This document shows, one piece after another, positions 1-20,000 of a DNA stretch of 20,000 bases; the first letter of the stretch is position 1, and every line of letters begins with the position of its first letter. The notes beneath the pieces are model-generated. The model ran no database searches. It worked only from the letters and a program-made list of their open reading frames with translations, and was not told the DNA's origin. Source of the stretch: an uncultured virus (IMG/VR IMGVR_UViG_3300037322_000284) (lineage: Duplodnaviria; Heunggongvirae; Uroviricota; Caudoviricetes); IMG/VR virus record IMGVR_UViG_3300037322_000284; one strand, given 5' to 3'. A program made the position numbers and the translations under genes.

Positions 1-1336
1 AAGCAGTTAGTTTATCTGTTGTTTTTTTAATTCCTAGTTTTTTGTCGAAAGCTTTTTGTGCATCTGCTGGTGTGGCTCCTTTTTTTAGAGATATGTCATA
101 CCTTTCTTTAAGTTCCTTAATGTTAGAAGATGATAGTTTTTGATAGTCTGCTAAAATCATATCTCCTTGGTCTAAGTTTAAGTTCACTCCATCTGCTATC
201 TTACCTTTTTTGATGTGTGGCTCTCCCACTATTTCTTTAACTTCCCCTGTTTGCCCATCTGCAAAATATTCACCTCCTTCGGCATTTGTGTTACCATAAC
301 CTTGGTCTGTTAAGAATTGACCCGTCATATTTTGAGCATTTGTTATTTCCTTTTTTCCGCCTTGTTGATAGCTTGCTATGGAGTTCGTTTGCATTCCTTT
401 ATTTGCATAACTTCTCCATTGAGGTGTTTTCCTAACCTCCATCATTTCAGCCTTTGTCACATTTTTATAATCTTCTGAACTTCTAGGGGGATAATTGTAG
501 TATATTCTATCGCCATCTATTCCTGATTTAGAGTCTGTTACACCCTCTTGGTATTTTACAATGTTAGGGTTAGTTGGTGGGAAGTTTCCATTTTGAACTA
601 TACCTCTTCCAAATAAAGCTTGTGCTCCTTCTAAAGTAAATTGTACCCCACTGTCTTTTTGTATTTGAGACAAATCATTTTGTGCTACTTGGGTATAACC
701 TCCTTGTTGTGTATATTCATAGTTTGTTTGTGGTCTATCTATATTGTCTTGCATTTCTTGCATAGACCTTTTTTTATCCCTCCCACTAGCTAATCCACTT
801 AAAAAGTTTCTAGATCCTTGTAGAGCAAATAGACCTGCTCCCATACCTATTCCTGACGCATTTCCTTCCCCTATAGATTGTCCTAAAAAACCTAACGCAT
901 TAACATCTCCATAAGGGTTTTGTATGTTATATCTAGTTATATCACTGTACTGTTGGTTTGGTTGCATGCTTCTTTTTAAAGCATTTAGGTTATTTTGCTC
1001 AGATGTGTAGTCTTTAAAATTTTCCGTTGTTCTATCAGCAAAACTTCCTGAACTGCTACTTATCCCTTGTGGTAAAGGTTGAGTAAAAGGTATTGGGTTA
1101 TTATTAATAAAGTTTTGAGAATTTGATAAAAGTTGTTCTTGATTTAGATTATTGTAGTCTAAACTTTGTAGGTTTAAACTTGGGTTTACATTTCTAAATT
1201 GGTTAAAGCTTCCCCCAAATTGCATATTTTTTTGCCCATTAAATGTTGCATAAGCTATTGCATTGGCTTGCGGTGTAGAATACCCATCTCCTTTAAGAGC
1301 TTTTATTTTGTTTTTAATAAACTGTTCTTTTGTCAT
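1..1336 (-). CDS. Putative internal virion / ejected cargo protein, truncated at left window edge (>=445 aa; absent from the ORF track)
   Basis: Manual translation from ATG 1336 (TAATG overlap with upstream stop): MTKEQFIKNKIKALKGDGYSTPQANAIAYATFNGQKNMQFGG..., open to the window edge (...QKAFDKKLGIKKTTDKLTA). Q/N/G-rich, with a Gly-rich hydrophobic segment (ALGFLGQSIGEGNASGIGMGAGLFAL), repeated QQGG motifs and an NAEGGEYF...GEPH...GVNL block. Located downstream of the tail stabilisation gene, where crAss-like phages encode cargo proteins. Function is inferred. Confidence 0.7.
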   Translation of the reverse strand, partial: MTKEQFIKNKIKALKGDGYSTPQANAIAYATFNGQKNMQFGGSFNQFRNVNPSLNLQSLDYNNLNQEQLLSNSQNFINNNPIPFTQPLPQGISSSSGSFADRTTENFKDYTSEQNNLNALKRSMQPNQQYSDITRYNIQNPYGDVNALGFLGQSIGEGNASGIGMGAGLFALQGSRNFLSGLASGRDKKRSMQEMQDNIDRPQTNYEYTQQGGYTQVAQNDLSQIQKDSGVQFTLEGAQALFGRGIVQNGNFPPTNPNIVKYQEGVTDSKSGIDGDRIYYNYPPRSSEDYKNVTKAEMMEVRKTPQWRSYANKGMQTNSIASYQQGGKKEITNAQNMTGQFLTDQGYGNTNAEGGEYFADGQTGEVKEIVGEPHIKKGKIADGVNLNLDQGDMILADYQKLSSSNIKELKERYDISLKKGATPADAQKAFDKKLGIKKTTDKLTA

Positions 1337-2934
1337 TATTTTTTATTTATTTCTTTTAAAAATAGTTTTTCTGCTTCTGTGATTGGATATTCTGTAAACT
1401 TTGTAGCTCCTTCAAATTTATATTCTCCTGAATTTGCCTCTATAATCTGTGATCTACCTACATTTGGTTTCACCAGAAGGCTTATGTTTCCATAACCATC
1501 CGTTGCCATTGTATTTCCTTGTATCTCTGTTATTTGATTGGGGTACTTCCGTTGACCCTGTTGGTCTTTTATTACTTTCCCTTGTTGTGCGTAATAATTA
1601 TCAGAAACTTTTGAATTATCTGCGGTTTTATTCAATAACTCTAATATTTCATCTTTATTAAAATGTTCTAAATTGTAACCTTTAAAGTTGTATTTTTCTA
1701 CATCTTCGGGCGTTATAACTTGTGTAGGTTTTAGTCCGTTATTATATCTAAACCTGTTTATTTCTGCGTGATTTTCCTCAGAGTCTTCTCTGTAAGGCGT
1801 TAAAGTTTTCGACGATGTTAACTTTGATATGGGCTCTGTTATGTATTTTTTATAGTTTTCATTATTTCCCTTCTTTAAATCTTTTTGGAACCTGTGGGAA
1901 AACTCGTGAGTTGCTATGCCTGCTCTATCTTGATAGTTTTTATCAAATATTATCCTATTAGTAACAGTATCAAATTCTCCCGAAGGTGTTATTAAATTAC
2001 CACCGTTGTCTGTGTATGATAAGTCATCAATATAAATATCATTTGAGAAAGGTGTAGAAGCGTTATTGTTTAATTTTACTCCGTTGACTTCTCTATTACT
2101 ATTCCAACTATTTAACCACTCTCTTTGGGTTTCAATATCTACTACTTGGGAAGTATTAAGATTACCTATTTTTGTTCCTTGTTGTGCAATATCACTATCT
2201 ACAAAACTACTCACATTATTATATATATCTACTAAGTTTGAAGTTGGTTGAGAATATTCCTGTTGGTCTCCTTGTGGTGGAGGTGCTACTTGTTTTTGCT
2301 CTGCTAATGATTTACCGTATTCATCTAAAAAATTTTGTTCTTTAGTTTTTTGCTCCACTTCAGCTATATCTTTATCTTCTTTTTGAGGCTCTTCTTCTGC
2401 TATTATTGGAGTATCAAAGGTAGGCATACTATTTTTTATATCAAATTCTTTGAAATTGCTTGTAAGTTGTTGTTCATAATTTGCTATTGCTTCATCAGAG
2501 ATTGGTGTTTGTCCTTTGTATTGTTGTTGAGTAGGTGTGTACTTTATATTTGCATTTTTGTAAACCTTTCCAACATAACTAGCTGTTTGTTGTGGCAATT
2601 CCTTTTTACCCGCTTTCCACTTTTTAATATTTCCTATTCCAAAATTATAAGCTCTTAAAGCATCATCCATATTACCCGTCTGCTTTTGTAATTGACTTAG
2701 GTACTTACCCGCCGCCTCTATACTTTGAGAAGCATTAAAAGGATCTATTCCAAAATCCTTTGCTGCTCCTGGCATAAATTGCATGAGTCCCTTAGCTCCC
2801 GCCTTAGAAACGGCACGTGAATTAAAGTTGCTTTCAGTCTTCATGATTCCCACTAATATATTTTTAGGTAAGTTGTACTTACTTTCTGTAACATTAGCTT
2901 CCTTAATATATCTTTGTTGTTCTGCTATTGTCAT
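1336..2934 (-). CDS. Virion-associated multidomain protein: N-terminal soluble lytic transglycosylase (SLT/GH23), central HExxH zincin-like domain, small C-terminal domain
   Basis: Canonical SLT motifs: catalytic TESNFNSRAVS, GAKGLMQFMP, AYNFG in aa 1-130. ATHEFSH (1894-1908 for HEFSH) followed by a downstream Glu helix (EENHAE). Confidence 0.85.
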   Translation of the reverse strand: MTIAEQQRYIKEANVTESKYNLPKNILVGIMKTESNFNSRAVSKAGAKGLMQFMPGAAKDFGIDPFNASQSIEAAGKYLSQLQKQTGNMDDALRAYNFGIGNIKKWKAGKKELPQQTASYVGKVYKNANIKYTPTQQQYKGQTPISDEAIANYEQQLTSNFKEFDIKNSMPTFDTPIIAEEEPQKEDKDIAEVEQKTKEQNFLDEYGKSLAEQKQVAPPPQGDQQEYSQPTSNLVDIYNNVSSFVDSDIAQQGTKIGNLNTSQVVDIETQREWLNSWNSNREVNGVKLNNNASTPFSNDIYIDDLSYTDNGGNLITPSGEFDTVTNRIIFDKNYQDRAGIATHEFSHRFQKDLKKGNNENYKKYITEPISKLTSSKTLTPYREDSEENHAEINRFRYNNGLKPTQVITPEDVEKYNFKGYNLEHFNKDEILELLNKTADNSKVSDNYYAQQGKVIKDQQGQRKYPNQITEIQGNTMATDGYGNISLLVKPNVGRSQIIEANSGEYKFEGATKFTEYPITEAEKLFLKEINKK

Positions 2935-2935
2935 T

Positions 2936-3859
2936 TTACTCGTAAATTGTTGTATTACTTACTATATTCTTAAGTACTAAATTAAACCTAGAATCCTCGT
3001 TTCCTTCTAAATGAACTAAAAAAGACTCCCCTTTTAATCTTTCTAAGACTTTTTTTCCAGTGAATTTAACTGCCTCACTATTTACTCCTCTAAAAATATT
3101 ATTTTTATCTTTTAATATTATTGGAATATTGTTGTTTTGATTTACAGTCCTGTTAAAAAAGTAGTTTACGTTTTGCTTTCCTTCCACCGATGTAAATAGT
3201 ATATCTTGAATATTTCCATTTAGTTTTGGGTATTTTCTATTGTCCGCCAAATTTTTCTGCGGGTTTAGGCTCAAAAGTCCTGAACAATTAGTAGAGTTAT
3301 AAATAAACATGTTTTTAAAAGACTTATTTTTGTCTATCGTAAAATCCCAATCGTTTTGATAATGTTTACTCTCGATGTTCAAAGATATGGAGTTTAACAT
3401 TTTATTTACGTTTTCGTTAACTATTGGAAACTCTATAATAGGGTTGTGTTTTATACCTTGGAATACACAAAAACTACTATTGCCCATTAAGTGATTCCAA
3501 AGTGTCCCTTTATCCACTCCCCAATTGTATCCTACTTGAAACATATTATTGTGGTAAGGAGAATAGTCGGGGTAAAAACTGAAATAGCTGTTCCAACTAC
3601 CTTCACTTACTTTATAAGATATTGTCCAACTAACTTCCTCAAAATAAGTGCTATTGTCAAAATATATTGGTGTCTTTTGTTCCACTATTATAGGTTGTAC
3701 AAAGTCTAAACATCTGTATACTGCATTACCATTAGGTAGTATTTCTAAAACACAATTCTGTGGATAATCTACGTTGTTTATAGTGGTTATGCATTGACAC
3801 ATAACCACTCCATTTAATTCATATTGAGTACAATTAACTCCCGTGCAAGTACATGCCAT
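2936..3859 (-). CDS. Probable C-terminal part of tail stabilisation/muzzle-like protein encoded as a separate gene
   Basis: 307 aa. YFEEVSWTISY...WNSYFSFYPDY...LWNH...FCVFQG...PIIEF resembles the blocks that normally follow the RxxITKKDY motif in crAss-like tail stabilisation proteins (recalled, not searched). Has its own Cys-rich N-terminus and an A-rich initiation context. Confidence 0.65.
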   Translation of the reverse strand: MACTCTGVNCTQYELNGVVMCQCITTINNVDYPQNCVLEILPNGNAVYRCLDFVQPIIVEQKTPIYFDNSTYFEEVSWTISYKVSEGSWNSYFSFYPDYSPYHNNMFQVGYNWGVDKGTLWNHLMGNSSFCVFQGIKHNPIIEFPIVNENVNKMLNSISLNIESKHYQNDWDFTIDKNKSFKNMFIYNSTNCSGLLSLNPQKNLADNRKYPKLNGNIQDILFTSVEGKQNVNYFFNRTVNQNNNIPIILKDKNNIFRGVNSEAVKFTGKKVLERLKGESFLVHLEGNEDSRFNLVLKNIVSNTTIYE

Positions 3860-3869
3860 AGTTTATATT

Positions 3870-6800
3870 TTAAAATTTTCTTATCGCTCTTACTTTACAA
3901 TTATTTCCTGGTTCTGATTTAGGGAATTCTAAAAATGTTCCCGCTAACAATGTATTGTAATCGTAGAATTGGCAAGCCCAAGCACTTTGTCCGCCTATAG
4001 CAGGACTCTGAGAAGATGTCCAATATCTCGATCTTCTTGTATCGCTGTCAAATTGTAAAAAGTTACCAATTGTATCTCTCAGAGAAAATACTAAAGCTAA
4101 TTCATCTTTACTAGGTAGGTACCAATCAGTGAAACCTCCAGCATTGTAATCTCTAGCTGCTTTTGCTGCGTATGGGTGTGGACTTGGGGCATATTTATTT
4201 ATTATGTTAGTAGTGTTAGTATCCCCAGATAATAGTGTGTCAGATGTTATATCTTGTCCACTTGTTTGATTAGGTCTAAACATGGTAAAATGGGCTTCTG
4301 GAGGAACACCTGGATTTGTACTGTAATTAGTTAGTTGCACATCACTTAATCCTACGATTAGTCCATGGCATCCGCTGCTGTCTACATATATTATTTTACC
4401 TCCTGCGTGTAGGCTTCCCACTGTAAAGTTACAAACTGCTGACGCTACAGATACAGCTATAAAAGTTGGACTGCTATTACACCCATTGTGACTTGCTACC
4501 ACTGAATATGTTGTAGTTCCCGTACCGTTTAGTGTTTGTAATATTGTTGTACCATTGCCTGCTAACCCTCCTGTTGTGCCCGAATTTACAACTGTCCAAC
4601 TGAATGTTGCTCCTATTACATTACTTGTTAACAATATGTTAGTAGGTTCACCCGAATTTATACTTTGACTACTTGGAGTTGCTATTACATTTGGTATAGG
4701 CTTTACTGTAGCTGTCACTTGTCTTGTTGTGCCTATACATCCTGAAACTGCTTCTTGTGGAGTGATTGTGTAAGTTGCTGTCCCGTTTCCTATCAACACT
4801 TGATTTATACTATTTCCACTACCACTTGTTGCGCCAGTAACTCCTGATTGAGTAACAGTCCACGTGAAATTTATATTTTGTCCCGTGGAAGTTATTGGTA
4901 TAGATGTTTGTATTCCACTACATATTTCCGCATTAGTCGCTAATGCATCTGCTGTACAGTTACAAACTGCTAGTGAAACTGCTGTTAAAGTACAAGTTTT
5001 TAAAATGTCATTGTATACATACCCACTTGGACAAATTGGAGGAGAAACTGTTAGTCTTTCACATAGTTGTGTTGCTGAATTATATGTATACCCTGTAGGA
5101 CAAGTTGTAGTGTAGGCACCGCAAGAATTATAAAATCCTTTTTCTTCATCGTATTCTAAACAATTTGTATCTTTAACAATATAGTCTTTCTTAGTTATAA
5201 AAACTCTATCTTCTCTATTGTCATACCACATATTAAAACCTATCCCTTTGTATTTATTATCCGTATCTACTTGTGGGAATTGTTTTAATATTTTCATTGG
5301 TAGGTGTTCTCTAAACCATTGTTTCATATTAGTAGGTTGATTTCCCACTTGTTCAGAAATTATCTCTAACCCTTTACCGTTTTGATCTATTTTAAATATT
5401 TTACCTCTTTTGGCATCTACCCAAATATGCCCATAAGGTGTGCTAACTATGTCTGTGTTTTGTGTTCCCATAAAGCCTAAATCTGTGGATTTAAACTCTG
5501 TCGGTCTTTGTAAAAACATCCCCCCTACACCTAAATCTTTATTTTGCGGTGTTATTCTTTCGGCAATATTATCTACCGCATTATGTAACATTAGTTTATC
5601 TTCAAATCTAACTATAAATTGCTCACTTTCAATATTGTGTAAATCTATAAGCCCACCATTTGCAGTTTTAAACTCGTACCAATCTAATGGTTTATATACA
5701 AGCCATGGATTTGTTAAATCATTCTCATTTATATCCTTTTGACTCCAGGCAATAGCATTTAATTGGGTTGTTCTTTTTGCCCAAACGTCTTTATCGTATG
5801 TAGTGTCTAGTATTTTAAAAGGTGAGTTGCTAACTGGTAATGTGTATGCATTGTTATAGTAAAAAGTGTTAGGTTCTGCTATTGAAACATTCGTATCCTG
5901 TAACCACGTACTCAAGTCTTGGTGTTGAGGGTAAAACCAATCTGCTGGCTCTTTCTTAGCATACCTAAAATTACAGTTTATCTCTGATTCAACAAGAAAG
6001 TCTACTATTCCGTGCACAAACAAGTAAAACTTACTAGGTGGTTTAAAATACATACTTCTACGTCCGTTTTCACAATCAAATCTAGTATTTGACACAATAT
6101 CTGGAAAAGGTATACCTAAGAATTTTTTAAATCCGTCATCATCTCCAGTTTCATAGTCACAAAAATATGCGGGGTACCCTATATTATCATACTTGGAGTA
6201 CATAAAAGGTATCTTGTTTGCTATTTTTATTGCGTTCTTTCTAAATATTGGAGTTTTTCTTCTCCAACTAAATCTAGATATTACAGAAGTTCCCCCATAA
6301 ATTACTTTACATTCTGTATTTTCCTGTATATCAAAGATATAGTTGGTAGTCAACCATTTTATAGACCCTATTCCCCCCCATTGGTCAGGAATATAGTTTT
6401 TTAATGTAAAATAAGGTGAGGCTACATCTCTATCTGATTTAACATCTGAACTGCAATTTACTTCCGAAGATAAAAAGTTACTAGATGTTGAAGAAGTTTT
6501 ATTATTGTCATAGTTTTTATAATCAGTATAACTTCCATAATTAAATGGATAGTCTTTACCTGTAGATAAAAATACTGAGTGCTCTCTTAACCAATTATTT
6601 ACTTTTACAGTGGTACCATCATTTTCATCTACTATGTTAAATTCTCCTTCTTTTAAATGTTTTTTAGAAGCTAGAGTTCTCAAGTAATCATTAGAATATT
6701 GATCCACTTTAAGAAACTTATTGTAATTACCTACTCCCACTTGCATTGAAGCAAAGTTATCGATTCTTCCTAAATCTCTAAATATTAGTAACCAACTATA

Positions 6801-9800
6801 CCTGTATTTTCCTACTTTGAATGCCCCTGATACTAATTGTAATCCTGCAAGTATTCCTGAGGCTATTAACCCAGCATTTGCACCATTTGCTAACCCAAAT
6901 AGAAAAAATTGAGATCCTGCTGATTCAGTTGATTTTATTAAAAATTCTAAAGTTGCTTCTGCTAGACCTAATCGATCTGCTGTTCTTCTAGCTTTATCTC
7001 CTAATACTGTCCATTCAGAATGTTTATCTACATCTGTAAAACTTGTACTGGCACTTCCAAAAACAAAGCCTTGTAAGCTAACTTCTGTAGGGAGTGTAGG
7101 TTTAGTTAAAAATATGTCTGGACTTAAAAATGAATATAAGTGATTACTGTTAGAATTATAAGGGTGTTCCAAAGGCTTACCGTTGGGTGCATCTAAACAA
7201 AATTTATTTCTCCCTAAATCATTAAAAGGAAAATTTGGAAAATGAAAAACCTCTTTTTCTTTTGTATATTTATAGTAATCGAATGCTATTCCACTTGCTA
7301 CAATAGATTTTGATACGGAGTTATCCCCTCTAAGTATTTCATAGCCTTGTATATTATCTCTTTGTTTTTTAGTGATTAAACCATTTGTATACGCTATATT
7401 AATAGCTGTCTGAACTACTTTACTGTCTAATTCAAACCCTAAAGGAAATATTATAGTGTCTGCATTATCTTTAAAGTCTAAGCTGTCTATAATATATGGT
7501 GAAACTGTATTGTCAGGTAACTTATAATGCCTAATTGGTTGGCATCTAAAATCTGCGTTTTTTAAAATATAATTATTGTTTACATCAACTACATTATTAT
7601 TTGTATAATACGCTGTAAATTCTAATCTGTCTGTTACAGATAAAAGGTTTAAGTCGGAAGGTTTAATCTTTATATTGGAACTATCCCATAGTTGTTTATT
7701 ATCTGGGTATTCTTCTGTAGATTCCCAATAAGCTGTCCTACCTTTTTTGTAAGGTATAGGATCACAATCATTAACTTGAGGTATTACCGATTTGCAAGTT
7801 GCTTCGTAAGTAATTACTTTACTTATTTTTATCTCTTCCCAACTTACTCTTATTTGAGCATTTTCTAATTCTCTAGAATATATTGAAAAACTACCACAAG
7901 TGGGTATAACTTTATAAACTGTTTTTTGAGAAGATGTAAGTCCACAATTTTCATCTATACTTTCGACAATTAAAGGTGCGTCTATAGCTATTATAAAAGT
8001 ATTGGGGTAATTAGTTGTGTCAATAGTTCTAATAAGTCCTTGAGACATATCTACAATACCCCCCGCTAAAACTGTCAAGTTTGCACAAGATTGATAAATT
8101 GTATATCTTATAGAATTACTATAGTTTAACTCCTCTCCTAAACTTTCACAATTTGATGACTTTGTAATTTCAAGTACAAACTTATTATCTTCTCTTTTCT
8201 GCGCTTTAAAAAATTGTGCTCCTTTATGTAATTTATTTTTAAAATTGGCATTAATAGCACTAGCATGTACGTTGTAATTATTCTGTAACAAATCTATCTC
8301 ACTTATAGCCCCGTACACATTTAAAAACACACCCTCTCCGTTGGAAATTGGATCTGCTTGTACAGGTAAACTTAATGCATAGTTACAAATTTCATTGTAA
8401 AAATTAGAGTCTCTTATGTAAACTTTTCTCCTGGATGATCCCTGACAATCCATGTAGTTATTCATAAATAAATCATCCTCTATAAAATTAGCGTCCGTTG
8501 TATTTCTCCTAAAAATGTTGGTTATTGATGGAGGTACAGATGGAAGATATTCAGAGTCTTGCTTTAGAATTTTTTCTACAATTTCTGCTTTTACTTCTGC
8601 TATTTTATTTATAGATTCTATTAATATTGGATTACTGCAATCTCCTATAAAAGATGGTAAACAAGTTTGTGAGTAGTTAGCCGTTAAAAACGGAGCTATT
8701 TCAGGTATATAATCACTTGAATTAATATCCGTGACAATATCATAATTATCGTTTATGTGATCGATTAGTGTATAAAATTCAATATCTGATGATAAAACTA
8801 CGGAATTTTGTAAAATAGTAGCTACATTTTCTATAATACACTCTTTTGATATCTCACTTTCAATAATTGTTGCACCCTCAGTTATGTTGCTACATTGTTG
8901 TTCAAAAACTGTTGCAGTATTATATACTTGCCATTTTTGACTTCTATCCACAGTTGAACAACTAGAGTTACTAGACCTTAAACTATTTAAATTTGTATCA
9001 GAAGTTAGAACGCTCTTTTCATCTCCTACATGGGGTCTTGCGACTAAAGGAAAATTTGCAGAATACCCTCCGTTGGTGTATGTAAGTCTTATTGCTAAAG
9101 CTTGAACTTCCCCTCTTGGGTAGCCTTTATATTTAGATGTGGCAATTGAACTTTTATAGAGATTTTCAGATGAGGCTGAAGAAGCCCAATGTACTAGTCC
9201 TCCAATAAGATTTACAACAGGCTGTAGATTAATTTCTTCCTCTGCCTCAATTCCATAATGCCATAGAGTGTCTCCACTAACCATTGTACCTTTAGCTTTT
9301 TTCCACGTAGGTTTTATAGCATTTAATGTGGCGAAATCCATTCTTTTTTTAATAGACACGTTCCCCCTAGACACATATAAATCATCATTATTACTTCCAC
9401 TAGATGTATAAATTATAGTATCATCTGTCGTTGGGTAAATTCCTGCTAAAAATACAGATTGAGTGTTTGATACATTATTTCTTTCAACAACAACTACCTT
9501 ATAATATTTAAAACCTCTTACATCAAGGTCGTTTACTTTTAATTTTATAGCAAAATTTGTAAAATCGTCTGTTGTTGTTTGAGCTTGTATGTTATTATTT
9601 TCGTCAAATATAGAAATAGGGTTTGTAGGTGAGCAATATTGAGTCATTTCGTTACCCACTATATCACAATAAGCTGCGTAGAATTCATAAGTACCCATCT
9701 TAAGATTACCTCCTAATTGTTGTTCTTTTGCTTCTATTGATATTCTATTGTGTTTTGGAAAAATGAGTAATTTGTCAACATTTATGCAAGTTGAATAAGT

Positions 9801-10463
9801 TGGATCATCACATACTAAATCTTCTTCGTATATATAACTTAATGCTCCTTTTGTTTCAATGTTTGTTACATTTATATATCTTGGTGCGTTATTGTAGTCG
9901 TTAAAGTAAAGAGTTGTACCTAGTTTTTCTTGGTTTATTTCAATTTTTTTAATTGGAGAATTTATATTGAAATTAAGCCCTTCTAAGACACTTAAACACT
10001 TATCATTAAACAACTCTACGTATTCTAAAGAGGGTACCTGTACAGCTTCTTCTAGTGGTTCTACTAAGGTTTTATAATTATCTTTACCGCAGTCATCACA
10101 AACTTGTGTTGTTTCAGTATTATTATAGTTTATATTGTAAGCATTATTATTATCTACATACCCCACACTTGAACGTTTATAATGGAGGCTGTTTATATCT
10201 TCTGTAGTGTTAGTTAAAAAGTAATAGGTTCTTTCTTTTAATAAGTCTGTTTTAAACCCTACAACCTTGTATAAATTATTACCTAATATTTTAAAATCTA
10301 CAGCAAAATGATTAGAAGGTTCTAAATTTAAATTGAATCCCTCCTGCTCAGAAGATGTGTTAACGTTTGAAGCTAGAGTGTATTGAACGTTTTTTAAATC
10401 TGATTGATTTTGGTCTCTCGACATCCCTACCTTTACTGCCGATATCTCTTTCTTTTGTTTCAT
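3870..10463 (-). CDS. Large tail stabilisation / muzzle-like protein with C-terminal Cys repeats, two PKD-like Ig domains and DUF1566 (Lcl-C, C-type-lectin-like) domain
   Basis: 2197 aa. Starts with a GMSRD motif; beta-rich (YFNDYNNAPRYIN, GTYEFYAAY, YWESTEEYP, PIRHYKLPD, GYEILRGD, FLVESEINCNFR, TPYGHIWVDAKRGKIF, RVFITKKDY). Follows IHF-like and tubular genes as in crAss-like tail modules. C-terminus GGKIIYVDSSGCHGLI...DWYLPSKDEL...YWTSS...AW...VRAIRKF is DUF1566-like. Confidence 0.8.
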   Translation of the reverse strand: MKQKKEISAVKVGMSRDQNQSDLKNVQYTLASNVNTSSEQEGFNLNLEPSNHFAVDFKILGNNLYKVVGFKTDLLKERTYYFLTNTTEDINSLHYKRSSVGYVDNNNAYNINYNNTETTQVCDDCGKDNYKTLVEPLEEAVQVPSLEYVELFNDKCLSVLEGLNFNINSPIKKIEINQEKLGTTLYFNDYNNAPRYINVTNIETKGALSYIYEEDLVCDDPTYSTCINVDKLLIFPKHNRISIEAKEQQLGGNLKMGTYEFYAAYCDIVGNEMTQYCSPTNPISIFDENNNIQAQTTTDDFTNFAIKLKVNDLDVRGFKYYKVVVVERNNVSNTQSVFLAGIYPTTDDTIIYTSSGSNNDDLYVSRGNVSIKKRMDFATLNAIKPTWKKAKGTMVSGDTLWHYGIEAEEEINLQPVVNLIGGLVHWASSASSENLYKSSIATSKYKGYPRGEVQALAIRLTYTNGGYSANFPLVARPHVGDEKSVLTSDTNLNSLRSSNSSCSTVDRSQKWQVYNTATVFEQQCSNITEGATIIESEISKECIIENVATILQNSVVLSSDIEFYTLIDHINDNYDIVTDINSSDYIPEIAPFLTANYSQTCLPSFIGDCSNPILIESINKIAEVKAEIVEKILKQDSEYLPSVPPSITNIFRRNTTDANFIEDDLFMNNYMDCQGSSRRKVYIRDSNFYNEICNYALSLPVQADPISNGEGVFLNVYGAISEIDLLQNNYNVHASAINANFKNKLHKGAQFFKAQKREDNKFVLEITKSSNCESLGEELNYSNSIRYTIYQSCANLTVLAGGIVDMSQGLIRTIDTTNYPNTFIIAIDAPLIVESIDENCGLTSSQKTVYKVIPTCGSFSIYSRELENAQIRVSWEEIKISKVITYEATCKSVIPQVNDCDPIPYKKGRTAYWESTEEYPDNKQLWDSSNIKIKPSDLNLLSVTDRLEFTAYYTNNNVVDVNNNYILKNADFRCQPIRHYKLPDNTVSPYIIDSLDFKDNADTIIFPLGFELDSKVVQTAINIAYTNGLITKKQRDNIQGYEILRGDNSVSKSIVASGIAFDYYKYTKEKEVFHFPNFPFNDLGRNKFCLDAPNGKPLEHPYNSNSNHLYSFLSPDIFLTKPTLPTEVSLQGFVFGSASTSFTDVDKHSEWTVLGDKARRTADRLGLAEATLEFLIKSTESAGSQFFLFGLANGANAGLIASGILAGLQLVSGAFKVGKYRYSWLLIFRDLGRIDNFASMQVGVGNYNKFLKVDQYSNDYLRTLASKKHLKEGEFNIVDENDGTTVKVNNWLREHSVFLSTGKDYPFNYGSYTDYKNYDNNKTSSTSSNFLSSEVNCSSDVKSDRDVASPYFTLKNYIPDQWGGIGSIKWLTTNYIFDIQENTECKVIYGGTSVISRFSWRRKTPIFRKNAIKIANKIPFMYSKYDNIGYPAYFCDYETGDDDGFKKFLGIPFPDIVSNTRFDCENGRRSMYFKPPSKFYLFVHGIVDFLVESEINCNFRYAKKEPADWFYPQHQDLSTWLQDTNVSIAEPNTFYYNNAYTLPVSNSPFKILDTTYDKDVWAKRTTQLNAIAWSQKDINENDLTNPWLVYKPLDWYEFKTANGGLIDLHNIESEQFIVRFEDKLMLHNAVDNIAERITPQNKDLGVGGMFLQRPTEFKSTDLGFMGTQNTDIVSTPYGHIWVDAKRGKIFKIDQNGKGLEIISEQVGNQPTNMKQWFREHLPMKILKQFPQVDTDNKYKGIGFNMWYDNREDRVFITKKDYIVKDTNCLEYDEEKGFYNSCGAYTTTCPTGYTYNSATQLCERLTVSPPICPSGYVYNDILKTCTLTAVSLAVCNCTADALATNAEICSGIQTSIPITSTGQNINFTWTVTQSGVTGATSGSGNSINQVLIGNGTATYTITPQEAVSGCIGTTRQVTATVKPIPNVIATPSSQSINSGEPTNILLTSNVIGATFSWTVVNSGTTGGLAGNGTTILQTLNGTGTTTYSVVASHNGCNSSPTFIAVSVASAVCNFTVGSLHAGGKIIYVDSSGCHGLIVGLSDVQLTNYSTNPGVPPEAHFTMFRPNQTSGQDITSDTLLSGDTNTTNIINKYAPSPHPYAAKAARDYNAGGFTDWYLPSKDELALVFSLRDTIGNFLQFDSDTRRSRYWTSSQSPAIGGQSAWACQFYDYNTLLAGTFLEFPKSEPGNNCKVRAIRKF
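4440..4950 (-). repeat. Two tandem PKD-like Ig domains within the 2197-aa protein
   Basis: SGIQTSIPITS..FTWTVTQSGVTGATSGSGNSINQVL..TATYTITP..GC and SGEPTNILLTS..FSWTVVNSGTTGGLAGNGTTILQTL..TTTYSVVA..GC align in register. Boundaries approximate. Confidence 0.75.
4985..5105 (-). repeat. Two CPxGYxYN-x5-C cysteine repeats
   Basis: CPTGYTYNSATQLC and CPSGYVYNDILKTC. Confidence 0.8.
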
Positions 10464-10465
10464 TT

Positions 10466-11329
10466 TTACTTAGGTAATGTGTATTTTTCTTGATTTTGGC
10501 GATTTTTTAAACGATATCTATCCTCCCAATTATTACTTAAACCTGACCAATTTGCTTCACTTTTAGCTAAAATTTCCAATTTTCTATCGTTTTGCATCCA
10601 AACAGATACAAACTGAGACAAACCTTGTGCATTTTTTGAATTTATAATTATGATTTCAGCAAGCTCGAGTTTTACGGTGTTTTTTATATATTTTACAATG
10701 TCACCTGTAGATATTATTGGAATCACTATTTCACCATCTTCGTCGCTTGGTAAGGAGTTATACTGTAGGTATATTTTACCCTCTTTAAAATTTGTATTTA
10801 AGGTTCTATTAGTTATAGATATTTTATTTGAATAACTATCTCTAATACTGGGGTGCATATTTAGACAGTTTGTGTCTAAGCTATCTTTTTTCATCCCTTT
10901 TACCAAACTTAACCATTCGTAGTCATAATACTTTTCTTGATACTCATTGTTAATAAATAATTTTTCCGTTACTATTTTTGTATCGCAATAATTTACTACG
11001 TAGTCTCTTTGGATACCGTCCCATTGTGCTGGGTTTGATATGTATTGCTTTTCAGATATTAATCTCTTGTCTTCGTTTTTTTTAGTCTGATACTTATCTT
11101 CCAATTTTAAGCCTACTATCATTGACTTAAATCCATGTGGTAGTACCGCTCTAGAGTTTTTAATATTAATTATAGTTTCTCTTTTATCGCATATGTTTTT
11201 ACCAAACTTTCTCAATTGGTCTATAACTATTGTTTTGATAGCTAATCTATCTATGTCATTGGTGTCAGCATAACTTGAAAGAGAGCTTTCTATTTCTGCG
11301 GTAAATTGTTCTAAAGTAATGAAATCCAT
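10466..11329 (-). CDS. Putative tail tubular / ring (adaptor) protein
   Basis: 287 aa immediately upstream of the stabilisation gene. Helical N-terminus plus TLNTNFKEGKIYLQYNSLPSDEDGEIVIP, a block typical of crAss-like tail tubular/ring proteins. TAATG overlap with the upstream gene. Confidence 0.65.
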   Translation of the reverse strand: MDFITLEQFTAEIESSLSSYADTNDIDRLAIKTIVIDQLRKFGKNICDKRETIINIKNSRAVLPHGFKSMIVGLKLEDKYQTKKNEDKRLISEKQYISNPAQWDGIQRDYVVNYCDTKIVTEKLFINNEYQEKYYDYEWLSLVKGMKKDSLDTNCLNMHPSIRDSYSNKISITNRTLNTNFKEGKIYLQYNSLPSDEDGEIVIPIISTGDIVKYIKNTVKLELAEIIIINSKNAQGLSQFVSVWMQNDRKLEILAKSEANWSGLSNNWEDRYRLKNRQNQEKYTLPK

Positions 11330-11745
11330 TATTTTTTTAGTTTTAACTTTCTGTGAAGTATTATTGCCCCCGACTTATCTTCTGATTTCTTATTCTCCAA
11401 TGCTTTATCACTGCGAGTATTTGTTGTTAAGTATAAATTTCTTAAATAACTATCCTCTAAATAAAATCTTAAAGCTTTTCTGTATTTTTTCTTTTTTGTG
11501 AATAAGTTTATGTTTTGAAAAACTTCTCCAAATGGGTGTTTATGAAAAACTCCTATACCTTTTAAATGCACCCCATGATCTGTTTCATTTAACATTTCTC
11601 CTATCTCAAAGCACATTCCATAAATCGCTTTTTCAAAATAATTATATTGGTCTATTACTTTGGAGGGCTTCCTTCTTGTTTTTCTATAAAAATCATAAAA
11701 TTCCCGCCCCATAAGATTTTCGCAGTATTGTAGTTTGCTTTTCAT
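11329..11745 (-). CDS. IHF/HU-like basic DNA-binding protein
   Basis: Lys/Arg-rich. IGEMLNETDHGVHLKGIGVF resembles the HU/IHF VxLxGFGxF signature. IHF-like genes precede tubular and stabilisation genes in crAss-like phages. Start moved from 11784 to ATG 11745, 1 nt after the upstream TAA (138 aa). Confidence 0.6.
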   Translation of the reverse strand: MKSKLQYCENLMGREFYDFYRKTRRKPSKVIDQYNYFEKAIYGMCFEIGEMLNETDHGVHLKGIGVFHKHPFGEVFQNINLFTKKKKYRKALRFYLEDSYLRNLYLTTNTRSDKALENKKSEDKSGAIILHRKLKLKK

Positions 11746-11746
11746 T

Positions 11747-12421
11747 TTACCTATTATCTTGTGAGTTAGGGTTTTGATCTTCATTTATTTGTTTAGTGAT
11801 ACCTAATCTTTGTAGTGTCATATCCTTAACGGCCTCAATTAACTTATCAGGGCAAATAAATTCATTTTCAAATTTATTCCTGCAAGTAACTTTTTCAAAA
11901 CAACCCGATGCTTCTTCTGCATCATCAACTTCTGCTGTTAAAACTGTTAAGTCTAAACTTAATATTTCGTAATCTGGTATGTATAGGTGATTATCAGTTC
12001 CTAAAAATACATAAACTTCATTTTTTAAATTGTGCTGTCTTTTTTTATTTCTACGGTATTGTATTTCATCCACTATTGTGAACCTAAAATCTCCGTCTAA
12101 AGAAACAATTTCTCTTATGCTAGACCCTAATCTTGAAAATATTAACTTAGGTAGGGGTTTTTTAGATTTCATTAAGATATCGCACCTTCTAAATTCTATT
12201 GAGGGGCATTTTTTAGCTTCTATTTTTGTGAATTCAAAACAAGGTATATTTGTAAATAAATTAGTCTCTAAAGATAAGCTTCTCTCTCCTAATTTCTGAG
12301 ATATTAAAAAACTTGCAGAATCTTTTAAAGATTTTAATATAAATCTTCTTGACATTCTGTCATCTTTATTATTTAACTTTAATATATTTGTAATTGAAGA
12401 TACTATTTCTTTATATGTCAT
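11747..12421 (-). CDS. Putative tail ring / structural protein
   Basis: MTYKEIVSSI...DDRMSRRFI...CDILMKSKKPLPKLI...DNHLYI...FICPDKLI pattern and position match crAss-like ring-type structural genes. Start placed at ATG 12421 (224 aa) because the track's TTG at 12469 lies inside the promoter -33 box. Confidence 0.6.
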   Translation of the reverse strand: MTYKEIVSSITNILKLNNKDDRMSRRFILKSLKDSASFLISQKLGERSLSLETNLFTNIPCFEFTKIEAKKCPSIEFRRCDILMKSKKPLPKLIFSRLGSSIREIVSLDGDFRFTIVDEIQYRRNKKRQHNLKNEVYVFLGTDNHLYIPDYEILSLDLTVLTAEVDDAEEASGCFEKVTCRNKFENEFICPDKLIEAVKDMTLQRLGITKQINEDQNPNSQDNR

Positions 12422-12438
12422 TTCATATGAGTTTAATG

Positions 12439-12470
12439 CAAAATTACTATTATTTTTTAGTTTAGACAAA
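12439..12470 (-). promoter_or_regulatory. Bacteroidota primary-sigma promoter (-33 TTTG / -7 TAnnTTTG)
   Basis: Minus strand TTTG (12470-12467), 20-nt spacer, TAATTTTG (12446-12439), ending 17 nt upstream of ATG 12421. Matches consensus and spacing. Confidence 0.8.
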
Positions 12471-16421: not shown

Positions 16422-16528
16422 TTTATATAATTTTATTTATTTAAATGTTAAGTTGAAAAGTAGGATAAATATTTTGCTTTGGGAGCTTTGTTCTTGTTTT
16501 TATACTAAAAGTAAAAATTTAAATGTGG

Positions 16529-16723
16529 TTAACCAAAAGATTGATCGAAAGAGTTGTCAAAAGAGCTACTAGGTTCATCGGTTTCACAATAAGGCTCGAT
16601 TCCTATCCATTTTACTGCTTGAATTGTTGTTTGTTCGCAATAAGGCTCTATACCAATCCATTTTACGGGGTTGTTAATTTCTACATAATCAGTTCTAAGT
16701 ATGTTTGCTATAAAACTATTCAT
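16529..16723 (-). CDS. 64-aa protein with duplicated VKWIGIEPYCE motif and C-terminal FDxSFDxSF motif
   Basis: Starts 5 nt after the upstream TAA. The two repeat copies differ only at synonymous sites. Confidence 0.75.
   Translation of the reverse strand: MNSFIANILRTDYVEINNPVKWIGIEPYCEQTTIQAVKWIGIEPYCETDEPSSSFDNSFDQSFG
16583..16666. repeat. 33-nt imperfect direct repeat, period 51 nt
   Basis: 16583-16615 ttcacaataaggctcgattcctatccattttac vs 16634-16666 ttcgcaataaggctctataccaatccattttac; 4 mismatches. Confidence 0.95.
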
Positions 16724-16728
16724 CTTTT

Positions 16729-19614: not shown

Positions 19615-20000
19615 TTATTTAGCTTTTAAAAGTTCAATTTCTTTCTCTAAAACTCTGATTTTCTCTACTAGAATTTCAATATAGTTAACGCTTAAAAATC
19701 CTTTGTCGTCTTTATTAACTTGGTCGGGGTTTGTTGCTCTTACTCTTTGCGCTACGTAACCTATGTGTGTTTTATCGTCTCGTTTGTCTTTCCAAGTGTA
19801 ATAAATTACATCACCATCACGCTTAATGATGTTTTTTAAGCGAATATCTGATGATTGAAAAAATGAAGATGCTGTTACTGTTCCAGTAAACAAACCATTG
19901 TTATTTGTGTCAATTGTAAAAATATCGCTAAATGTGTCTGAAGGGTTTATAGTAGCGTTGTTGCTTCTAGTTAAAACAAACGGAGAACCCGAAGAAACCG
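19615..20000 (-). CDS. Tail fibre C-terminus with peptidase S74 intramolecular chaperone domain (5' truncated)
   Basis: SSDIRLKNI...YTWK...IGYVAQRV...LSVNY...KIRVLEKEIELLK is the S74 pattern. The frame stays open upstream of 19893 to the window edge (VSSGSPFVLTRSNNATINPSDTFSDIFTIDTNNNGLFTG). Confidence 0.85.
   Translation of the reverse strand, partial: VSSGSPFVLTRSNNATINPSDTFSDIFTIDTNNNGLFTGTVTASSFFQSSDIRLKNIIKRDGDVIYYTWKDKRDDKTHIGYVAQRVRATNPDQVNKDDKGFLSVNYIEILVEKIRVLEKEIELLKAK

Follow-up and report, generated by a model that had tools for sequence, protein, structure and literature searches.

Can a structural protein of a phage tail be supplied by two genes, and what would a cut in its chain make possible? 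The question is raised by two adjacent open reading frames (ORFs) in a 20,000-nucleotide stretch of DNA from an uncultured virus of the Caudoviricetes (IMG/VR record IMGVR_UViG_3300037322_000284), here called the window. The first ORF encodes 2197 amino acids (aa; protein P0001) and the second encodes 307 aa (protein P0002). An earlier note, made from the letters alone, had proposed that they are the two parts of a muzzle, or tail-stabilization, gene split around an adhesin-like display cassette. Our analysis supports, with a good deal of confidence, a two-polypeptide muzzle that is cut at a plug-in loop and whose large chain carries a stalk-borne head that probably contacts the host.

Anatomy of the split locus

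All long ORFs in the window are on the minus strand, in a phage structural module with 31% GC. The features of the split locus are listed below, with the basis of each assignment.

3870..10463, minus strand: large muzzle gene (P0001), core plus display cassette; 2197-aa ORF, translated
5199..10463, minus strand: conserved muzzle core, aa 1-1755, ending in the strand block RVFITKKDY; profile and BLASTP homology
4956..5198, minus strand: putative outgoing hairpin strand and Cys-rich stalk, aa 1756-1836; sequence reading
4425..4955, minus strand: two predicted PKD/Ig-like domains forming a linear stalk, aa 1837-2013; weak Pfam Ig_7 match and relatives
3873..4424, minus strand: predicted terminal head, DUF1566/Lcl_C, C-type-lectin-like, aa 2014-2197; weak Pfam match and tblastn
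3860..3869, minus strand: A/T-rich 10-nucleotide (nt) spacer aatataaact from stop to ATG; the ORFs lie in different frames
2936..3859, minus strand: small muzzle gene (P0002); 307-aa ORF, translated, stop at 2936-2938
3665..3859, minus strand: Cys-rich leader of P0002, aa 1-65, putative 'return' half-stalk and returning hairpin strand; leader conservation and profile alignment
2936..3664, minus strand: P0002 core, aa 66-307, predicted last propeller strands and MUZ_C-like C-terminal part; PHROG 37948 match

The block RVFITKKDY occupies aa 1753-1761 of P0001 (window 5181-5207) and overlaps the stalk part. It is directly followed by CLEYDEEKGFYNSCG and then by two CPxGY...C repeats, with CPTGY at aa 1788 and CPSGY at aa 1811 (5061-5102 and 4992-5033, respectively). 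The cysteines C1768, C1781, C1788, C1801, C1811 and C1834 are kept in at least 90% of 46 split-type relatives, and repeats of the same type also occur in fused stalk forms. P0001 ends with a TAA stop codon at 3870-3872. P0002 begins MACTCTGVNCTQYELNGVVMCQC, and its block YFEEVSWTISY starts at aa 72. Thus the arrangement described in the earlier note, namely two CPxGY repeats, two PKD-like domains, DUF1566 and a stop after RVFITKKDY, followed 10 nt on and in another frame by a 307-aa ORF with a Cys-rich leader before YFEEVSWTISY, was confirmed on the sequence, the Pfam names of the domains being sub-threshold. A promoter and terminator scan of the coding strand at the gene junction found nothing over chance.

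The sub-threshold scores speak against the domain labels. Pfam Ig_7 matched two stretches of P0001 at 26.5 bits (cut-off 27.3), and Lcl_C (PF07603) matched the head at 27.8 bits (cut-off 34.9); the score of the head with NCBIfam adhesin_Lcl was 27 bits against a cut-off of 500. The labels are nevertheless supported by the relatives and by a tblastn match. The homologous domains in relatives matched PKD_5 (PF19406) at 42-56 bits (cut-off 25), and the related head of the homologue P0120 scored 30.7 bits with Lcl_C. By tblastn, the P0001 head matched two Porphyromonas phage genes for a 'DUF1566 C-type lectin fold protein' (E 4e-8, 99% coverage, 27% identity), and in the Protein Data Bank (PDB) it matched 8q4e, HbP1 (E 1.7e-4).

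The two ORFs tile a family of single-chain proteins

The two ORFs match consecutive parts of one protein family. In PHROG 37948 (2289 positions, 'virion structural protein'), P0001 aa 1-1779 covered positions 1-1749 (E 0) and P0002 aa 66-303 covered positions 2053-2287 (E 1.4e-43). When P0002 was compared by tblastn with 50,697 phage records, 10 records were matched, and in the three distinct matched records that were inspected the match was the C-terminal ~240 residues of one long coding sequence. Single-chain homologues are gp042 of Cellulophaga phage phi4:1 (YP_008240630.1; 2289 aa, annotated as detected in virions by tandem mass spectrometry), a protein of phage csAssE-Sib that carries the note 'Muzzle protein' (WOZ57294.1; 2257 aa) and a protein of Leptolyngbya phage Lbo-JY46 (XAI97387.1; 1654 aa). 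In BLASTP comparisons the large chain was 36% identical to phi4:1 gp042 over 1814 columns, and the small chain was 34-39% identical to single-chain homologues, including 39% to phi4:1 gp042 residues 2052-2288.

The earlier note placed the ITKKDY and SWTISY blocks of related phages in one polypeptide, separated by a variable loop. This holds in all three proteins, where the loop between the ITKKDY-type and SWT-type blocks measures 337 aa (phi4:1), 49 aa (csAssE-Sib) and 42 aa (Lbo-JY46). A separate 307-aa protein is not found in every homologue: in 8 of 17 IMG/VR loci it is the C-terminal portion of a single chain, and the corresponding module has this position in 59 of the best 120 large homologues. 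It matches the C-termini of single-chain homologues exactly.

The split is real, heritable and conserved

Stand-alone homologues of P0002 were collected by a word-indexed search restricted to proteins of 168-538 aa. They formed 92 clusters with 43-98% identity, mostly of 300-315 aa. Most covered 99-100% of P0002 with the leader included, and the Cys-rich leader starting with MAC is kept; in an alignment of 34 stand-alone homologues, the leader residues M1, C3, C5, C21, P33 and C48 are at least 90% conserved. A search of viral contigs with P0002 as a single sequence gave no match, and an alignment-based search found loci. Nine of 17 IMG/VR loci are split, with the small gene starting 9-41 nt past the stop of the large ORF, and the remaining eight encode one chain.

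The junction itself is also seen in other sequences. The metagenome contig L024, from a relative ~91% identical, shares the TAA and the ATG, its 10-nt spacer differs by one substitution, and 183 of 200 nt around the junction are identical to the window. Contigs from three coded runs (three studies, with possible overlap with the L024 data) span 3859-3870 without indels, and a second contig also encodes the pair of 2197-aa and 307-aa proteins. No misassembly at the junction was found. The ratio of non-synonymous to synonymous substitution rates (dN/dS) between the window and L024 was 0.053 in the small gene (24 synonymous and 6 non-synonymous changes), 0.036 in the P0002 core and 0.078 in the last 174 head codons, indicating purifying selection. 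The split is real, heritable and conserved, and the fission is an old state shared by at least 92 protein clusters, not a one-off of the window phage. The 307-aa genes are presently annotated as 'hypothetical proteins'.

An error of sequencing or assembly, or a newly formed pseudogene, has a negligible probability as the cause of the split. No finding favors this explanation, which has in its support the prior expectation for a giant ORF followed by a short one; the clusters of stand-alone homologues, 12 further split loci, the indel-free contigs and the strong purifying selection on both sides of the junction contradict it. It is also extremely improbable that one polypeptide is restored at expression by stop readthrough or reassignment, frameshifting, an intron or protein splicing. 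The genomes of crAss-like phages are reported to contain recoded stops as well as introns and inteins (PMC7886860, PMC12386605), and the two ORFs share a frame in 6 of 10 split loci. In the window, however, the stop is TAA, the frames differ, and readthrough would reach the next stop after 11 codons. The relatives show all three frame offsets (0, 1 and 2) and spacers of 9-41 nt with several stops, the M-A-C start is conserved in the small proteins, and the 'insert' is in-frame coding sequence for folded domains. Rfam, introns included, gave no match in the window at gathering scores; the window has no tRNA, and P0001 and P0002 have no intein-type Pfam match. Artefact, pseudogene, readthrough, frameshift, intron and intein were rejected on the TAA, the second stop 11 codons on and the absence of Rfam matches and tRNAs.

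Identity as the muzzle of a crAss-like phage

Upstream of P0001 are genes for ring proteins:

10466..12469, minus strand: ring-protein genes, Ring_1-like at 10466-11329 and Ring_2 at 11747-12469; Pfam

The Pfam family CrAss_Ring_2 matched 11747-12469 with 104.6 bits (cut-off 27). CrAss_Ring_1 matched 10466-11329, the gene that abuts P0001, with 22.1 bits, below the cut-off of 27. The order is that of phicrAss001, in which gp40...gp43 are followed by gp44, with the ring genes before the muzzle. Among 29 family members scanned, four matched Pfam crAss_MUZ above the cut-off of 27 (P0185, 48.7 bits; P0150, 57.8; P0193, 86.0; P0225, 73.4). Alignment of a 56-sequence family profile (A2) with gp44 by hhalign gave a probability of 95.8% (E 6.7e-9) over gp44 residues 111-391, and a profile of split-type members only (A3) gave 42% (E 2.6e-4) over the same residues. 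The ESM features of P0001 aa 1300-1790 were nearest to crAss_MUZ clusters (score 0.97), and in the ESM clusters nearest to the small protein crAss_MUZ_C is present in 15-81% of members. On five concordant lines of evidence, the two ORFs together are assigned as the muzzle of a crAss-like phage, the counterpart of phicrAss001 gp44. The earlier call of a muzzle gene was borne out by the gene order, the family profile against gp44, the crAss_MUZ matches of relatives and the ESM features.

Several results pull the other way. Neither P0001 nor P0002 reached Pfam crAss_MUZ (PF25731) or crAss_MUZ_C (PF25729); P0001 had no match to crAss_MUZ even at E<=10, crAss_MUZ_C was matched by 0 of 34 stand-alone small proteins, and sequence and profile searches of the PDB retrieved neither gp44 nor any nozzle protein. 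The mapping of the cut site on gp44 depends on a weak alignment (probability 10-14%, E 0.002-0.003) together with a reading by eye. In that mapping, small-protein residues 116-191 align colinearly and weakly with gp44 1233-1302 (hhalign; 1233-1303 over the profiles A1/A4); in gp44 Pfam crAss_MUZ ends at 1235 and crAss_MUZ_C covers 1244-1333. At the cut site gp44 has only a tight turn, YFTYKDH(1194-1200)|CLCYSE(1201-). We tentatively place the cut in the loop of a beta-hairpin toward the propeller's end, at about gp44 residue 1200 and ~40 residues before MUZ_C, so that the small chain would supply the last blade strands and the C-terminal domain.

In phicrAss001, gp44 forms a hexamer at the tail tip and consists of a domain that joins the ring and a propeller of seven blades into which Ig and 'crass' domains are inserted; the length variation of crassvirus muzzles is due to insertions (PMC10172136). 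An older name of the muzzle gene in crAss-like genomes is 'tail stabilisation protein (P22 gp10-like)' (PMC7886860).

A further observation concerns the core. The most hydrophobic stretch of P0001, aa 1186-1216 (window 6816-6908; FFLFGLANGANAGLIASGILAGLQLVSGAF), reaches a Kyte-Doolittle value of 1.67 over 19 aa and is located just before a conserved GKYRYxWL block. A comparable Gly/Ala-rich hydrophobic stretch is found at the same place in phi4:1 gp042, P0136 and P0185 and is absent from phicrAss001 gp44 (maximum Kyte-Doolittle 1.07). This stretch may act as a gate or on membranes.

The break coincides with an insertion site of the family

A search with P0001 residues 1300-1840 retrieved 554 homologues, of which the best 120, query included, were analyzed. 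Sixty-one of these end in the cassette without the C-terminal module (one, P0110, looks truncated), and 59 are single chains. The loop between the conserved blocks could be delimited in 57 single chains: 34 have hairpins of ~33 aa, 10 have a stalk with a vWA domain and 13 have other inserts. The 10 stalk-and-vWA loops comprise two CPxGY repeats, the vWA domain and a Cys-rich return segment. The 13 others include CBM-like (~170 aa), Cys-rich (200-230 aa), stalkless vWA and phi4:1-like inserts, as well as a stalk alone (88 aa). Loops of different size are found on nearly the same backbone: P0132 and P0136 have loops of 180 and 39 aa, although their identity is 95.7% in the 600 residues that precede the loop and 97.9% beyond it. 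The hairpin loop at the break is a plug-in site, an insertion hot spot for folded domains across the family.

A small-protein profile searched against 1.84 billion representatives at 50% identity gave 1138 proteins. Among the best 150 of these, 104 are at least 1800 aa long with the match at the C-terminus, and only three are full stand-alone proteins of 300-320 aa. Most of those of intermediate length still hold the TKKDY block and for this reason are regarded as fragments. In the family at large a single chain is usual, and the split is characteristic of a sub-group.

Some less common architectures were also seen. The single chains P0240 and P0223 have a DUF5122-type beta-propeller between two stalk halves (2+2 repeats), and the single chain P0232 has ~7 outgoing and ~6 returning Cys repeats around a vWA domain. 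P0253, P0332, P0221 and P0280 are short proteins starting with M that have other N-terminal pieces before the SWT core, namely a one-repeat leader, an extension of ~80 aa or long domains. They may result from cuts at other positions, in which case the second chain would bear the head, or be fragments of genes.

Linear stalks and exchangeable heads of the split forms

One or two CPxGY repeats are present in almost every split tail. PKD-like domains, searched for by jackhmmer with the window domains as seed, were present in 40 of 61 split tails (one to three each) versus none of 57 fused loops; these counts include phylogenetically related sequences and are not independent. PKD-like domains are linear spacers with their ends at opposite poles. 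Single-chain inserts must bring both ends together, and fission atop the stalk removes this constraint, so that a long stalk and end-on heads such as LRR solenoids are allowed.

The heads of 60 split tails fall into 10 sequence families: a domain of ~110 aa (11 tails), LRR (9), a 'GYYEV...DRFQIIWDG' type (9), an 'NWGDG' type (8), two vWA-like types (8 and 6), DUF1566 (3, window included) and three families of 2 each. PKD_5, LRR_8 and VWA were matched above Pfam cut-offs in the relatives. The DUF1566-type head of the window is shared only with P0120 (46% identity) and P0111 (33%). The closest backbones (68-69% identity over aa 1100-1755) bear other heads, and the window's head type is carried only by backbones that are 59-61% identical, indicating that heads are shuffled among backbones. 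The idea of a display cassette is strengthened by these results, as the same stalk bears ~10 head families in relatives. The free C-terminus, which had been tied to DUF1566, was confirmed as such but is not special to that domain, since nine other head families use the same end. What is exclusive to the split forms is the linear PKD-like stalk, not DUF1566.

Two observations temper this picture. Fused as well as split forms have vWA heads, and not every head therefore needs a split chain. In addition, the omega of the window's head is 0.08, indicating purifying rather than diversifying selection, and a residue-level signature of an arms race is absent. A Cys-rich domain (…GGCH[TS]S…) is a free C-terminal head in the split loci P0139, P0181 and L025, the last a metagenome contig, and an internal insert in the single chains P0155 and P0184, indicating that some heads move between the two architectures.

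DUF1566 domains have a C-type-lectin fold and are described as C-terminal, exposed, ligand-binding targets of diversity-generating retroelements (DGRs; PMC5758913, PMC8143477). Diversification of the head by a DGR within the 20-kb window was considered and rejected. No direct repeat longer than 43 nt was found in the 20-kb window, and none touches the head at 3873-4424, leaving no pair of template and variable repeats; there was no reverse transcriptase among the window ORFs scanned. With no such repeat in the window and the head under purifying selection, head diversity would come from module exchange.

Probable replacement of the cassette by recombination

The synonymous rate dS between the window and L024 differs four-fold between the two sides of the 10-nt spacer (3860-3869), being 0.655 in the head and 0.154 in the small gene. 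This jump suggests a recombination boundary at or near the gene junction. The cassette has a GC content of 0.38-0.39 versus 0.31, and GC at third codon positions is not raised (0.19-0.22 versus 0.21), so the difference stems from amino-acid composition. A recent import of the cassette from another codon regime was rejected on this ground.

On phylogenetic trees, the split state requires 16 changes (tree of the 600 residues before the loop) or 17 (tree of the C-terminal module). A single split clade was rejected by the approximately unbiased (AU) test on a 52-row IQ-TREE analysis (delta log-likelihood 1763, p 2e-45). The rows for this test were picked after the first tree had been seen, and recombination violates the tree model. 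A single fission followed by vertical descent was rejected on the 16-17 changes and the AU test.

Split and single-chain forms are also found on closely related backbones. Compared with the single-chain stalk-and-vWA protein P0125, the split pair P0130+P0057 shows 86.9% identity upstream and 85.2% downstream; for the split pair P0117+P0039 and the single-chain P0123 the values are 85.5% and 86.9%, respectively. The simplest reading is that the whole cassette between the TKKDY and YFxDVSWT blocks may be replaced by homologous recombination. If so, the one-chain and two-chain versions would be functionally equivalent.

Probable assembly of the two chains

In single-chain stalks the outgoing and returning Cys repeats are balanced (1+1, 2+2, or ~7 with ~6), which suggests a two-stranded stalk. 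The small-protein profile A1 aligns, from positions 2-26 on, to the return stalk of fused proteins. In the split forms, stalk and leader covary: all of 26 gene pairs show either one outgoing repeat with a leader of 39-44 aa (4 pairs) or two repeats with a leader of 66-72 aa (22 pairs). L008, in which the two genes are directly adjacent, fits this pattern, with one repeat and a small protein of 283 aa. The two chains most likely assemble through a two-stranded Cys stalk and through strand pairing in a propeller blade.

Two considerations lower the weight of the covariation. The 26 pairs are the window and 25 pairs that were matched by equal size of the longest contig, not by contig identity, and adjacent genes are co-inherited anyway, so covariation is no independent proof of contact. 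The contact between the chains is deduced, and this leaves some room for a small protein that no longer assembles with the large chain, the locus then consisting of a truncated muzzle and a protein with a new role, or of one decaying partner. We regard this as very unlikely. The residues that are invariant in the C-terminus of single chains are retained in the small-protein core, which has the dN/dS of 0.036 given above, and split and single-chain forms replace each other between flanks with 85-87% identity on either side. Furthermore, the leader covaries with the stalk and the small gene is always 9-41 nt downstream of the large one.

A proposed role in contact with the host

The mechanism that we propose is as follows. 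The muzzle, which closes the tail tip, would be made from two polypeptides of adjacent genes. The large chain would leave the core after RVFITKKDY, run through a strand, two CPxGY repeats and two PKD-like domains, and end in a free DUF1566 head at the C-terminus. The small chain would contribute two matching Cys-rich 'return' repeats, the returning strand and, after these, the final ~240 muzzle residues. If the muzzle is a hexamer, as gp44 is, the tail tip would bear six projecting appendages, each with a stalk and a head. Their heads would bind a surface glycan of a Bacteroidota host, and the cassette, consisting of stalk, head, stop, spacer and leader, would be swapped between phages by recombination in the conserved flanks.

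Binding of the host surface is fairly probable, and is the most likely role of the heads given their position at the tail tip, their adhesion-type folds and their shuffling between close relatives. The hosts are probably Bacteroidota. Cultured relatives infect Cellulophaga, and two species-genome matches, which are weak, are metagenome-assembled genomes labelled Flavobacteriaceae and Bacteroidales.

Heads of this kind might instead attach the virion to matrices in its environment (polysaccharides of algae or particles, mucus, biofilm) or provide a secondary reversible contact while fibres set the host range; they would then not be primary receptors. Adherence to matrices has been proposed for Ig-like capsid decorations. 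The Ig region of P0001 has a weak profile match to T4 Hoc (E 0.03), purifying selection acts on the window's head, and the folds seen in the heads (LRR, vWA, lectin-like, PKD-like) are adhesion folds of a generic kind. In addition, a distinct fibre-like protein that bears an S74 chaperone domain is encoded in the window. We nevertheless consider a matrix or secondary role unlikely. The heads are at the very tail tip, on the protein proposed to contact the cell (PMC10172136), and they are swapped between close backbones, as receptor-binding modules are. DUF1566 domains are moreover tropism-linked DGR targets in Bacteroides phages. The two-polypeptide muzzle with a host-contacting head is thus retained as the preferred explanation.

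The fibre-like ORF at 19615-19998 (minus strand) is open at the window end. It has a Peptidase_S74 motif (23.7 bits, cut-off 22) and PHROG tail-fibre matches, indicating that the phage has separate fibres besides the muzzle heads. A broader proposal, to which we give somewhat less than even credence, is that in this large clade of crAss-like phages the muzzle and not the fibres is the main host-range device. The hairpin would then be a socket, the stalk an adjustable, disulfide-zipped element of 1 to ~7 repeat pairs, and fission would yield an obligate heterodimer, with the states interconverting by recombination.

crAss-like phages are among the most abundant viruses of Bacteroidota, and their receptor-binding parts are poorly known. 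In the passages covered from the literature on 'muzzle protein', neither a split muzzle gene nor exchangeable heads are described. If the proposed role is correct, a muzzle socket for lectin-like, LRR, vWA, CBM-like and propeller heads would point to the part of these genomes that determines host specificity, and it would give a rule by which host range could be predicted or re-targeted. One-chain and two-chain forms replace each other on backbones with ~86% identity, so that fission of an essential structural protein is tolerated at a defined beta-turn; natural cases of this are rare, and the present one is useful for split-protein design and for annotation. Under the broader proposal above, phages of this family would have tried out many times in nature how a protein in an essential part of the virion can be split and rejoined, and cutting atop the stalk would free a C-terminus and allow long linear PKD stalks and end-on heads to be mounted.

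Two observations concern other parts of the window. The gene downstream of P0002 is outside the split and is given as context:

1336..2934, minus strand: 532-aa protein with an N-terminal lytic transglycosylase domain; Pfam SLT, 86.3 bits

This protein has a PHROG match to 'lytic tail protein' and ~400 further residues without a family, and it occupies the place of the phicrAss001 cargo protein gp45. An imperfect 33-nt direct repeat (16583-16615 and 16634-16666; 88% identity, 51 nt apart) is located in the only sizeable intergenic gap of the module, 16422-16728. The site at 16583-16666 may be regulatory.

Comparison with known systems

The closest described proteins are those of phi4:1, csAssE-Sib and Lbo-JY46, which are homologous end to end to both ORFs and share the ITKKDY and SWT blocks. 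In contrast to the window, each is one polypeptide without a stop, a stalk or PKD-like domains, and the 337-aa insert of phi4:1 has no Cys repeats, unlike the stalk of the window. phicrAss001 gp44 (Bayfield et al., Nature 2023, PMC10172136) has the same place after the ring genes and an N-terminal region that is homologous by profile. It is one chain of 1371 aa, whereas the window muzzle comprises ~2500 aa in two chains and has, where gp44 has its tight turn, a Cys stalk, PKD-like domains and a lectin-like head.

A tail-tip propeller made from two genes, as proposed here, has been described in the Pseudomonas podophage A1002 (gp39, nozzle-rope, and gp42, nozzle-base; PLoS Biol 2026, PMC13730344). 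Its nozzle consists of two proteins whose propeller blades are completed in trans, as seen by cryo-electron microscopy, and one chain has a long appendage that ends in an Ig-like domain. The A1002 nozzle belongs to a different and much smaller family, and its appendage docks fibre dimers and has no exchangeable heads; the passages available report neither a Cys stalk nor interconversion with single-chain forms among close relatives.

The head itself is probably of the type found in the DUF1566 DGR targets of Bacteroides and Porphyromonas phages, where it is likewise C-terminal and often follows Ig-like domains (PMC8143477, PMC5758913). In those phages the domain is on the fibre and, in the passages describing it, is varied by mutagenic retrohoming; in the window it is on the muzzle and appears to be varied by the swapping of whole heads.

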